Shown: piece after piece, positions 1 to 18,596 of the stretch
Position numbering within the stretch: the first letter of the stretch is position 1
How the letters are laid out: each line of letters begins with the position of its first letter
Assembly (NCBI GenBank): GCA_039809385.1
Contig: JBDHUY010000025.1
Span: forward strand, 1 to 18,596
DNA length: 18,596 bases
Direction: 5' to 3'
From: Candidatus Altimarinota bacterium
GTDB lineage: Bacteria > Patescibacteriota > Gracilibacteria > JBDHUY01
The notes under the pieces: model-generated
The model's input: the letters and a program-made list of their open reading frames with translations, nothing else
What the model was told of the DNA's origin: nothing
The model's database searches: none
Position numbers and translations under genes: made by a program

Positions 1-698
1 GGTCTACCTTCGCCCAATGACTTGAACCCGCGACCTCCCCGACGCTTCCGTCGGGACGCGCTAGCATTCTTGCGCTAATCCCCGTTAATGGCTCACTATT
101 TGATAGTGATAGTATGGTATTGTTTTCGAGATAGTAACGTAACGATCGGTCTACCTTCGCCCAATGACTTGAACCCGCGACCTCCCCGACGCTTCCGTCG
201 GGACGCGCTAGCATTCTTGCGCTAATCCCCGTTAATGGCTCACTATTTGATAGTGATAGTATGGTATTGTTTTCGAGATAGTAATGTAACGATCGGTCTA
301 GCTTTGCCCAATGACTTGAACCCGCGACCTCCCCGACGCTTCCGTCGGGACGCGCTAGCATTCTTGCGCTAATCCCCGTTAATGGCTCACTATTTGATAG
401 TGATAGTATGGTATTGTTTTCGAGATAGTAATGTAACGATCGGTCTAGCTTCGCCCAATGACTTGAACCTGCGACCTCCCCGACGCTTCCGTCGGGACGC
501 GCTAGCCAACTGCGCTAATCCCCGTTGGTAACCGTATGTCTGAAAACGATCGTATCGTATTCTTTTCGAGATACCAGAGCAAAGTTGTATGTAATTTAGT
601 ATTCTCAATATCTAGGTCTAGTGCTTTACGAGGACTTGAACCCGCGACCTTCCCGACGGTAGCGTCGGGGCGCGCTAGCATTCTTGCGCTAATCCCCG
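1..698 (-). repeat. Tandem array of tRNA-Pro-like pseudo-tRNA units (units start at 1, 148, 295, 442 with 147-bp period; diverged fifth unit at 615); probably continues beyond the left edge
   Basis: GGTCTA recurs at 1/148/295/442/615. Units 1-3 differ by only a few substitutions. The minus strand of 19-84, 166-231, 313-378, 460-524 and 633-698 reads CGGGGAT-TA-GCGC-Dloop-GCGC-G-[20-nt hairpin]-AGGTC-GCRGG-TTCAAGT-C, i.e. tRNA positions 1-61 without an anticodon or 3' acceptor strand. Confidence 0.9.
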
Positions 699-17668: not shown

Positions 17669-17809
17669 GGATGGGGCAAGTGAGTGTTACTACCCCGATA
17701 CTCCTTAAATGCCCCGGCTGAGATAGTTCTCTTGTTGTTTCGAGTCAAAATCAGTATACTAAGAATAATAGGTTTGAAATTTCGAAAGGTTGAACTATAG
17801 TTTTGTTGA

Positions 17810-17885
17810 CGCGGGGTAGAGCAGCTGGTAGCTCGCAAGGCCCATAACCTTGAGGTCGTCGGTTCGAGTCCGACCCCCGCAACCA
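17810..17885 (+). tRNA. Initiator tRNA-fMet(CAT)
   Basis: CGCGGGG start with C1:A72 mismatch, CAAGG-CCCATAA-CCTTG anticodon arm, TTCGAGT T-loop, ACCA end. Confidence 0.95.
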
Positions 17886-17893
17886 AAAGATAT

Positions 17894-18136
17894 ATGTACA
17901 GTGTGTATGTTATTTTGAGTGAAAGCGGTATTCTATATGTGGGTCAGACGGATAATCTTTCTCGGAGGTTAGAAGAGCATAATGCAGGAGTATCTTTCTA
18001 TACCAGAAGAAGTAAAAGCTGGAAACTCGTTTATAAAGAAGAATATGCAACCCGTTCGGAAGCAATGAAACGTGAAAAAGTATTGAAAAGCGGAAAAGGG
18101 AGGGATTTTCTGAAACGCTTGGTATCTGGCCCATAA
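17894..18136 (+). CDS. Small GIY-YIG nuclease family protein (UPF0213/YhbQ-like)
   Basis: YSVYVI...LYVGQT.NL.RRL.EHN.G...YT....WKLVYKE....RSEAMKREK.LKSGKGR; 80 aa; starts 8 nt after the tRNA CCA. Confidence 0.92.
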   Translation: MYSVYVILSESGILYVGQTDNLSRRLEEHNAGVSFYTRRSKSWKLVYKEEYATRSEAMKREKVLKSGKGRDFLKRLVSGP

Positions 18137-18181
18137 TCCGCCGCGGCGGATCGTCGGGCACGAGTCCGACCCCCGCAACCA
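18128..18181 (+). pseudogene. Duplicated 3' half of tRNA-fMet with a palindrome insertion
   Basis: GGCCCATAA-[TCCGCCGCGGCGGA]-TCGTCGG-GCA-CGAGTCCGACCCCCGCAACCA versus native GGCCCATAA-CCTTGAGG-TCGTCGG-TT-CGAGTCC... Confidence 0.85.
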
Positions 18182-18189
18182 AAAGATAT

Positions 18190-18261
18190 ATGTACAGTGT
18201 GTATGTTATTTTGAGTGAAAGCGGTATTCTATATGTGGGTCAGACGGATAATCTTTTTTAA
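18190..18261 (+). pseudogene. Truncated second copy of the GIY-YIG gene (23 aa)
   Basis: MYSVYVILSESGILYVGQTDNLF*; first 22 codons identical to 17894. Confidence 0.85.
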
Positions 18262-18596
18262 TCAATCTAAGTAATGATTTTAGCGACAATCTTCCCGGAT
18301 TGCTTGCGCCCCGTCGTGGCGGTGATCCGGGATCCGGAGCAGGCAAGTTCATGTTTTTTCTCATATTGACATTGAACCCTTAAAAAGGAGCTATCCCAGG
18401 ATTCTGGAAGAACATATACAGAGACTGTATGAATAAAAAAACGTATTATGGTGATACGTTTGAATAATATTGTAGATAACCTGAGTTACGAAATAGAGGA
18501 AATGAGGAAAGAGTGATAGAGTAGGGCAGAAAAGTATTACCACATAAATTTCTGCCCTATGGAGATTGTAGCACAATCGGATGATCTGGTACGAAC

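Follow-up and report, generated by a model that had tools for sequence, protein, structure and literature searches.

Close to the 3' end of an 18,596-nucleotide (nt) stretch of DNA from a Candidatus Altimarinota bacterium (Gracilibacteria), an initiator-type tRNA-Met gene is followed by a very small GIY-YIG nuclease gene, a damaged partial copy of the same tRNA and the start of a second copy of the nuclease gene. The stretch, in the following referred to as the window, represents the entire contig C25 (18.6 kb) of a metagenome bin (genome G000; 1.87 Mb, 26 contigs). The locus comprises the following features:

17774..17801 (+): promoter-like site, TTGAAA-16-TATAGT, just 5' of the initiator tRNA (consensus match alone, 10 of 12 positions)
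17810..17885 (+): intact initiator-type tRNA-Met(CAT) gene with encoded CCA (ARAGORN; Rfam tRNA, 60.1 bits)
17886..17893 (+): 8-nt spacer AAAGATAT from the tRNA 3' end to the ATG, recurring at 18182-18189
17894..18136 (+): single-domain GIY-YIG gene, 80 amino acids (PF01541, E 1.6e-16), the last 17 nt including the TAA being tRNA-derived
18120..18181 (+): damaged second tRNA copy, tRNA positions 17-76 (alignment of the tRNA to 18086-18185, score 55; 21-nt exact BLAST match)
18136..18151 (no strand assigned): perfect 16-nt palindrome ATCCGCCGCGGCGGAT of the TCCGCC..GGCGGA hairpin class
17865..17960 (+): 96-nt exact repeat, copy 1, spanning the tRNA 3' end from the T loop up to CCA, then the spacer and the initial 67 nt of the nuclease gene
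18161..18256 (+): 96-nt exact repeat, copy 2, 100% identical to copy 1 (spacing, and unit, 296 nt)
18190..18261 (+): truncated second nuclease copy, 22 codons as in copy 1, one further codon and TAA (92% identity over residues 1-24)

The tRNA, which we take to be the initiator tRNA by its diagnostic features, displays a C1/A72 mismatch (read from the sequence) and ends (CGCGGGG...CCCCGCAACCA) that are common to the copies in 17 of 17 relatives. As outlined in a preliminary description of the locus, the 80-amino-acid GIY-YIG open reading frame (ORF) starts 8 nt beyond this intact tRNA gene (ARAGORN, Rfam, PF01541), the start of a second nuclease copy lies within the exact 96-nt repeat, and the final nuclease codons plus stop, GGC CCA TAA (18128-18136), originate from the second tRNA copy and run into the perfect palindrome. 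This second tRNA copy, previously regarded as a 3' half, is indeed present but is longer and more damaged than described: the alignment reveals a 5-nt deletion and a change of TT to GCA destroying the T loop, and the palindrome substitutes the 3' strand of the anticodon stem together with most of the variable region. The 3' strand of the acceptor stem and the CCA are kept intact. The tandem array amounts to 1.4 copies of the 296-nt unit, the sole gene of which is the nuclease ORF; no integrase is encoded inside or beside it, in agreement with the earlier view of an integrase-free unit. A consensus scan of the window yielded no promoter-like site between tRNA and ORF and no terminator-like site after the tRNA; judged by sequence, the promoter-like site upstream is the sole candidate promoter for both tRNA and nuclease gene. 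Also considered was a group I intron in the anticodon loop of the tRNA, which is rejected, since the upstream tRNA is uninterrupted and the Rfam gathering search of the window matched the tRNA alone, with no group I ribozyme core; in two other loci, too, no RNA family apart from tRNA was matched.

The nuclease matches the GIY-YIG family (PF01541) with 60.8 bits (curated cut-off 22.6), which places it in the superfamily, and Y5, Y15, G17, R25, H29 and E61 are invariant across 19 aligned sequences. Besides GIY-YIG, only an overlapping T5orf172 match is found, i.e., the 80 residues comprise the catalytic domain only and include no separate DNA-binding domain. Such a separate domain with a long recognition site is typical of I-TevI and the Seg proteins. 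Closest solved structures are the UPF0213 proteins 1zg2 and 1ywl (E about 1e-12), followed by SLX1. NCBIfam contains no model for this nuclease subfamily; with the group I intron endonuclease model of that library, the protein reaches just 18.2 bits (cut-off 56.05). The nearest protein relative is 61% identical, and the nuclease forms a singleton at 90% identity.

The same design is found elsewhere in this genome. A protein search retrieved eight small GIY-like loci (query and truncated copy apart), of which five are located directly 3' of a same-strand tRNA or transfer-messenger RNA (tmRNA) gene, namely fMet, Pro-CGG, Tyr, tmRNA and Val (the latter with a frameshifted copy). At tRNA-Pro(CGG), both GIY-YIG copies are followed by a copy of tRNA-Pro from the D loop onward, in which the hairpin TCCCGACG-CTCC-CGTCGGGA takes the place of the anticodon arm. 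The opposite end of the window carries a further array:

1..670 (-): tandem 5' copies of a pseudo-tRNA-Pro(CGG) plus upstream flank, period 147, at least four copies

Its copies have an altered D loop, and the hairpin TCCCGACGGAAGCGTCGGGG substitutes their anticodon arm. The array goes on at the end of contig C20 (C20:25610-25635), 5' of the real tRNA-Pro and two GIY-YIG genes, so that C25 and C20 probably adjoin. According to a BLAST search of all 47 tRNAs against the genome, at least 11 have partial copies nearby, namely pseudo-tRNAs with one arm replaced by a GC hairpin, and some of these form tandem arrays that include tRNA flank (Leu-GAG, period 159; Pro-GGG; Pro-CGG, period 147, the latter occupying the initial 650 nt of the window). 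In the pseudo-copy of tRNA-His, TCCGCCGCGGCAGA stands right after the anticodon loop, a position corresponding to that in the fMet remnant. The palindrome is not peculiar to the junction in the window: its exact 14-nt core is present 14 times in the genome (1.87 Mb), as compared to about 0.003 expected from base composition. In relaxed form, the TCCGCC-type hairpin is present at 29 sites, five of them no more than 300 nt away from a tRNA gene (such zones make up 1.8% of the genome); others resemble terminator stems or intergenic repeats.

Within the class, a protein match was obtained in 23 of 31 genomes (G000 counted). Among 28 fetched class loci (L037 being counted by its second copy), 16 possess a same-strand tRNA or tmRNA gene within about 120 nt, upstream or downstream, and in 14 of these 16 a partial copy of the same tRNA resides on the other side of the nuclease gene. 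An intact tRNA upstream goes along with a 3' part downstream, and an intact tRNA downstream with a 5' part upstream. The identical palindrome recurs in two genomes of other families, where it substitutes the D arm of a tRNA-Phe remnant (L013) or lies directly 5' of an exact 50-nt copy of initiator-tRNA positions 26-75 (L014). Some class relatives contain an in-frame TGA, which, together with Peribacteria bins among the best matches in other collections, suggests that the organism probably belongs to the Patescibacteria in the vicinity of Peribacteria/Peregrinibacteria. On the 3' side of intact tRNA-Asn (L020:1850-2219) and tRNA-Phe (L013:1837-1940), additional hairpin-bearing 3' remnants are arranged in tandem, each with a copy of the terminator region and none with an ORF. 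Stop-less nuclease ORFs were observed at L063:1720-1745 and L023:1715-1735, where they end at the TAG of positions 8-10 of the next tRNA or pseudo-tRNA; in the window, the anticodon-loop TAA serves as stop.

A protein scan across collections retrieved 59 loci (38-58% identity, Peribacteria bins among the best matches) from Bacteroidota, Ignavibacteriota, many Patescibacteria lineages, Gammaproteobacteria bins, Planctomycetota, Acidobacteriota, NC10 and others. At 48 of them a tRNA gene is located within 150 nt, in every case on the same strand, and in 38 of these 48 the opposite flank contains part of the tRNA in question as a second copy (local alignment score of at least 30, the best scores elsewhere in the same loci being mostly 22 or below, with two exceptions). 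With gentler gap penalties, applied without such a null, and the 16 class loci added, a remnant is found in 58 of 64 cases. A GC-rich hairpin foreign to the tRNA is contained in 48 of the 58 remnants, positioned in the D arm (19), the anticodon arm (13), the T arm (6) or elsewhere including the remnant edge (10). The commonest form, TCCGCC-N(2-4)-GGCGGA or a close variant, accompanies the nuclease subfamily of the window in many phyla (Patescibacteria, Bacteroidota, Ignavibacteriota, Gammaproteobacteria, Acidobacteriota); in tRNA-Arg elements of Bacteroidota, and in one tRNA-Leu element from the class of the window, the hairpin is CCTGCCTGCC..GGCAGGCAGG, and the proteins of these elements group in one region of the tree. 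The survey of small GIY-YIG genes that had been proposed for this locus has specifically tied the subfamily to tRNA genes and to partial tRNA duplications.

Partial duplication of a tRNA at both ends of an insert is the classical mark of integrase action (PMC9897764, as far as its accessible parts go), and the preliminary description had drawn the analogy to attL/attR. The corresponding explanation, a non-autonomous mini-island whose movement would be catalysed in trans by a tyrosine integrase or a different recombinase with the nuclease uninvolved, could invoke the two tyrosine-recombinase (PF00589) matches on other contigs of the genome, one of which is strong and probably represents a housekeeping enzyme of the Xer type. 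Islands of this kind at tRNA or tmRNA genes likewise restore the tRNA, but measure 9-23 kb or more in the sections of the source at hand (PMC9897764), as compared to about 0.3 kb and no integrase here. Furthermore, the duplicated tRNA stretches vary in length between about 13 and 77 nt, represent 5' or 3' parts, carry hairpin substitutions and share no fixed core, and the link to one nuclease subfamily holds across many phyla. With such variable, lesioned tRNA pieces, recombination at tRNA homology fits better than a fixed att core; the att analogy appears less apt, and movement in trans is left with a slim chance.

A maximum-likelihood tree was calculated for 69 proteins (L053, L057, L064, L078, L085, L087, L090, L093 and L096 were dropped for stops or odd length). 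tRNA isotype requires 29 changes on this tree (41-49 in 300 shuffles) and phylum 24 (26-33 in shuffles), counts that overstate independence since related rows share labels. The arrangement of the tRNA upstream or downstream of the nuclease gene requires 14 changes (11-23 in shuffles) and thus flips freely, even within clades. Clades by isotype include a Lys clade of three Patescibacteria lineages plus Gammaproteobacteria, a Phe clade of Chitinophaga, another member of the Bacteroidota and Peregrinibacteria, and a Glu clade of one Gammaproteobacterium plus Levyibacteria; Asn, Gln, Ser, Asp and Val form clades as well.

The window's structure lies 340 nt from the end of a metagenome-bin contig, and its physical reality was checked with independent contigs. 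In a different study, run X5 yielded a contig identical to 17979-18378 and run X6 one identical to 17943-18317; starting in the unique 3' portion of the ORF, both continue across palindrome, remnant and the complete second repeat copy and reach unique downstream DNA. The second junction is reproduced in this way, with the reservation that these are k=31 contigs at low depth, k being shorter than the 96-nt repeat, so that an alternative graph path (a 296-nt circle, plus a tRNA followed by the truncated copy alone) may account for them. The contigs of run X2 end at the repeat borders, as expected of repeats, and give no cover at 18110-18211; several runs cover parts only, and a hole of this kind carries no weight as absence. 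An ordinary tandem duplication by slippage or unequal crossing-over, or an assembly artefact caused by the 96-nt repeat, in either case with no special link to the nuclease, would be in line with the position near a contig end, the breaking X2 contigs and the limited resolution at k=31. Such an origin is highly improbable, given the spanning X5 and X6 contigs and the recurrence of the design, both at the tRNA-Pro locus of this genome and in dozens of others, some of which were assembled as a single contig. A 267-nt metatranscriptome contig (X9) is identical to 17945-18211, where it runs from the 3' part of the ORF across palindrome and remnant into the beginning of the second copy; as it could be carried-over DNA in an RNA library, it is no proof of transcription. 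The final 120 nt of the window (18477-18596) also occur at the ends of contigs C4, C5 and C15 and, in other runs, are joined at higher depth to several different upstream sequences, i.e., they constitute a dispersed repeat breaking the assembly.

Filled and empty sites can be compared in two genera of Bacteroidota. Among 31 Winogradskyella genomes, the nuclease part of the query matched in one (G031), the others giving no match to the insert, and in eight of ten printed tRNA-Arg(TCG) loci the upstream gene directly meets the tRNA (in the other two the tRNA was missed by an exact-word look-up). The filled site consists of tRNA positions 1-22, a 19-nt hairpin, positions 23-33, six bases, the ORF and the complete tRNA. 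Lacking its own stop, the ORF terminates at the TAG of tRNA positions 8-10. As the remnant is otherwise identical to the tRNA, this insertion is young and the hairpin arrived with it.

In Ferruginibacter, the initiator-type tRNA-Met locus was seen at 24 loci (L087 and 23 of 29 fetched), with a nuclease gene in six and none in 18; presence/absence polymorphism at one conserved site is accordingly observed for the subfamily in both genera (1/31 and 6/24). Several of the 18 GIY-free loci keep solo scars composed of GGCTCATA, a TCCGCC..GGCGGA hairpin and CACTGG...CGCAAC, in which the hairpin is placed directly 3' of CATA in the anticodon loop, as in the window; two scars (L149 and L151) retain the last ~15 nt of the ORF. 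The nuclease copy of L087 is broken by an in-frame TAA. Its remnant leads into a downstream terminator resembling the one in the closest empty genome, and a different terminator plus the ORF leader follow the intact tRNA, a layout which fits an element supplying the 3' part of the functional tRNA. At L159 (G082 C10:242400-243700), three GIY copies are arranged in tandem 5' of an intact tRNA with a period of ~414 nt, each being followed by a tRNA-Met-like copy of which only the last was called intact by ARAGORN. With respect to the window's own site, a GIY gene is present at only one of 17 initiator-tRNA loci of class relatives, though no close relative is on hand; the initiator locus of the one same-family genome lacks a GIY gene, but about 120 nt downstream it displays a solitary remnant, T loop to CCA, that bears a GC hairpin. 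The idea of mobility and tandem amplification thus holds for the cassette type, as judged by polymorphism, scars and arrays in relatives, and does not extend to recent movement of the window copy.

These distributions also bear on the possibility that the nucleases and hairpin-bearing pseudo-tRNAs form a domesticated host system, inherited vertically with occasional loss. Possible tasks would be to regulate recombination or transformation at tRNA loci, in the manner of the small GIY-YIG nucleases Ssn with their NTS repeats, or to provide decoys for tRNA-integrating elements. The precedent of Ssn has been interpreted as domesticated in the accessible text of PMC11893778, pseudo-tRNA arrays exist independently of a GIY gene, catalytic residues are conserved in 19 of 19 aligned relatives, and the Ferruginibacter copies are old (61-75% identity). 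Vertical inheritance is difficult to reconcile with an insert present in one of 31 Winogradskyella genomes and otherwise undiverged from its tRNA, with clades that track tRNA isotype across phyla, with broken copies (the second copy in the window, the frameshift on C11, the TAA in L087) and with copy numbers of 1 to 11 matches per genome among the five Bacteroidota genomes searched. Domestication therefore appears unlikely.

Taken together, the region is probably best understood as a miniature mobile cassette resident in a tRNA gene, which would bring a replacement for part of the tRNA, depend on the tRNA promoter for its expression and use recombination to spread and amplify. Mobility of the cassette type is well supported; how it moves we infer as follows. 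The unit would consist of a tRNA-derived segment, a short spacer and a nuclease gene ending inside the next tRNA-like copy. Apparently promoterless, it would be transcribed by read-through from the tRNA promoter, as suggested by the invariable co-linearity with the tRNA, the 8-nt spacer and the sole promoter-like site 5' of the tRNA. Entry into the tRNA gene may proceed by homologous recombination, the tRNA segments acting as portable homology arms and at the same time as address label, which would explain the isotype-tracking clades, the 5' or 3' remnants, the occurrence of both arrangements per clade and the crossing of phyla. By bringing along the displaced tRNA part, the cassette would keep the gene functional, likewise to mitochondrial endonuclease ORFs and attP sites. 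The nuclease would start recombination by breaking DNA at or beside the hairpin, or in tRNA DNA. Unequal recombination between tRNA copies could subsequently generate tandem units (1.4 copies here) and also loss of the ORF, leaving solo hairpin-bearing pseudo-tRNAs. Exactly one tRNA copy of the array is intact, presumably kept by selection, the others being disabled by GC-rich hairpins that replace or split an arm. The hairpin may represent the cognate site of the nuclease; one may alternatively speculate that it is a mere lesion, inactivating the spare tRNA copy and interrupting the homology through which the ORF would otherwise be lost. For the upstream and downstream forms, a strict circular permutation of a single unit was considered but found no support, the Gln pair L034/L035 having different leaders; in view of the tandem arrays in Ferruginibacter, an array with one surviving intact copy is the simpler account.

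Several observations weigh against a mobile cassette or restrict it. Cleavage, a circular form and transfer are putative, every mechanistic step being inferred. The 80-amino-acid protein is devoid of a separate DNA-binding domain, and an intact tRNA adjoins its gene, where a generic cutter of tRNA DNA would endanger the host; as this tRNA gene persists, the enzyme is no general cutter of double-stranded tRNA genes. The window copy displays no sign of recent mobility (nearest relative 61%) and may be old and immobile, in a class where the initiator-tRNA loci of relatives are GIY-free with the single exception mentioned above. The association has exceptions, with no tRNA within 150 nt at 11 of 59 loci, no clear remnant at 10 of 48 and no hairpin in 10 of 58 remnants. 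Conversely, pseudo-tRNAs or arrays stand without an adjacent GIY gene at His, Phe, Ile, Leu-GAG and Pro-GGG in this genome, and 24 of the 29 TCCGCC-type hairpin sites are away from tRNAs, so that the hairpins may have another source or role. The tree has a weakly supported backbone in addition to the shared labels of related rows. Finally, the Ferruginibacter GIY copies are 61-75% identical to that of L087, about as diverged as their flanks, and old inheritance with repeated loss fits that genus as well as repeated gain.

Several documented systems resemble parts of the cassette. Ssn nucleases (family cd10448; Chenal et al. 2025) are small single-domain GIY-YIG enzymes that bind a hairpin repeat beside their own gene and cut single-stranded DNA (ssDNA) next to the hairpin (PMC11893778, accessible parts, as for all statements on Ssn from this source below). 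Shared traits are the very small single domain (80 amino acids here, within the single-domain size criterion of about 80-110), the conserved Tyr/Tyr/Glu, with Y6, Y17 and E64 mutated in SsnA corresponding to Y5, Y15 and E61, and the position of the gene beside GC-rich hairpin repeats that are also scattered through the genome. Differences concern the hairpin consensus, which is TCCGCC..GGCGGA here and not of the CGTCATTC...GAAT type, and its placement: the window possesses one hairpin, downstream only and inside a pseudo-tRNA, whereas Ssn motifs often flank both sides. The word tRNA is never used in the main text of PMC11893778. By analogy, the window nuclease is probably a hairpin-directed ssDNA nuclease like Ssn, the closest documented enzyme type, with ssDNA cutting presumed from this resemblance.

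SegB of the phages T4 and T6, a free-standing GIY-YIG homing endonuclease encoded within tRNA gene clusters, carries a separate DNA-binding part, and it is a phage protein, whereas the elements described here are chromosomal and occur in bacteria of many phyla. According to the available sections of the respective papers, SegB recognises a site with a conserved tRNA T-loop motif (PMC2330249) and drives tandem amplification of a tRNA plus segB segment by microhomology recombination (PMC13096335). Both cases have a GIY-YIG gene among tRNA genes of many isotypes; partial tRNA duplication with hairpin lesions is not described for SegB in those sections (PMC2330249, PMC13096335). The amplification by SegB provides a precedent for the 1.4-copy array in the window and the three-copy array in L159.

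With respect to architecture, the closest documented counterpart is the mobile endonuclease ORF (mORF) of fungal mitochondria, which carries a duplicate of the host gene 3' end (Allomyces atp6; Glomus atp6, atp9, cox2 and nad3; PMC3630166, in the parts accessible). There, too, the host gene is completed by an element-borne end, followed by the endonuclease ORF (sometimes in phase and stop-less) and the remnant of the native end, and horizontal spread is reported. mORFs differ in that mitochondrial protein genes are targeted and larger LAGLIDADG or GIY-YIG endonucleases are encoded; here the target is a tRNA gene, the remnant is a 5' or 3' part, a characteristic hairpin is present and the unit measures only ~300 nt.

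The enzymes of REP/RAYT systems and of IS200/IS605 elements, which transpose as single strands guided by hairpins, are HUH tyrosine transposases with covalent intermediates, unlike GIY-YIG nucleases. Common to these systems and the cassette is a small nuclease gene with short palindromic hairpins multiplied in the genome (PMC11893778). The genome's own weak Y1-transposase (RAYT-like) ORF (C2:139500-140760) is flanked by several copies of a hairpin repeat of its own, GGTTCCAAGTTGTACTTGGAACC, with the stem GGTTCCAAGT..ACTTGGAACC and not TCCGCC; this is a second, separate nuclease-plus-hairpin system. A RAYT/REP origin of the TCCGCC hairpins is rejected, since this sole weak Y1-transposase match has its own, different REP.

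Further repeats and GIY-YIG genes of the genome may be listed at this point. A repeat of ~110 nt, beginning with the hairpin ATTCTTCGC-N4-GCGAAGAAT and without an Rfam match, is located right after the CCA of tRNA-Tyr (L004, C4), tRNA-Glu/tRNA-Val (L010, C11) and tRNA-Lys-TTT (C3:45223); at tRNA-Tyr and tRNA-Val it precedes a different small GIY-YIG clade, where a tRNA duplication is not obvious. The same GC-rich T-loop insert of ~90 nt stands before two 3' remnants, those of tRNA-Asp and tRNA-Lys(CTT) (C9:7700-7860 and C3:67080-67220), and one resembling it is found ahead of the solitary initiator-tRNA remnant (L130) in the same-family genome. Longer GIY-YIG genes unlinked to tRNA (L006, C8:94290; L008, C12:34563) have long inverted repeats CGTCATTC/CGTCATTG on both sides, resembling the published NTS/SRM repeats (PMC11893778).

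A more far-reaching version of the mobile cassette is put forward tentatively, being doubtful at present: the ~300-nt element may rank among the smallest self-sufficient mobile DNAs of bacteria, composed of an exchangeable pseudo-tRNA address, which would direct its homology-based insertion to the corresponding tRNA gene of nearly any bacterium, and a hairpin cognate to an 80-amino-acid ssDNA nuclease that would initiate the event, and existing as a circle or as a tandem array. The same lineage could then cross phyla because tRNA genes are so conserved. A search of the full-text literature yielded no account of small GIY-YIG genes that have a tRNA and its hairpin-bearing partial copy as neighbours; the supplementary tables of PMC11893778 and PMC13096335 lay outside this search and may bear on the point. 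This tRNA-resident combination of two known kinds, the free-standing endonuclease ORF that comes with a duplicate of its target and the Ssn-like nuclease paired with a hairpin, is thus apparently undescribed.

The interest of these elements rests on their small size, wide spread and regularity. If the proposed cassette is real, tRNA genes of many phyla would host a common, overlooked class of miniature mobile elements, which would account for many small "GIY-YIG nuclease family" annotations, for pseudo-tRNA fragments and arrays beside tRNA genes and, in metagenome bins, for some of the breaks between contigs that occur at tRNA loci. The elements would extend the Ssn principle, i.e., a tiny nuclease with its own hairpin, to a setting with apparent homology arms of its own. 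Their nuclease-hairpin pairs are candidate tools for ssDNA cutting at chosen sites, and the isotype-following clades across phyla offer a clean system to study how mobile elements keep or change their target.

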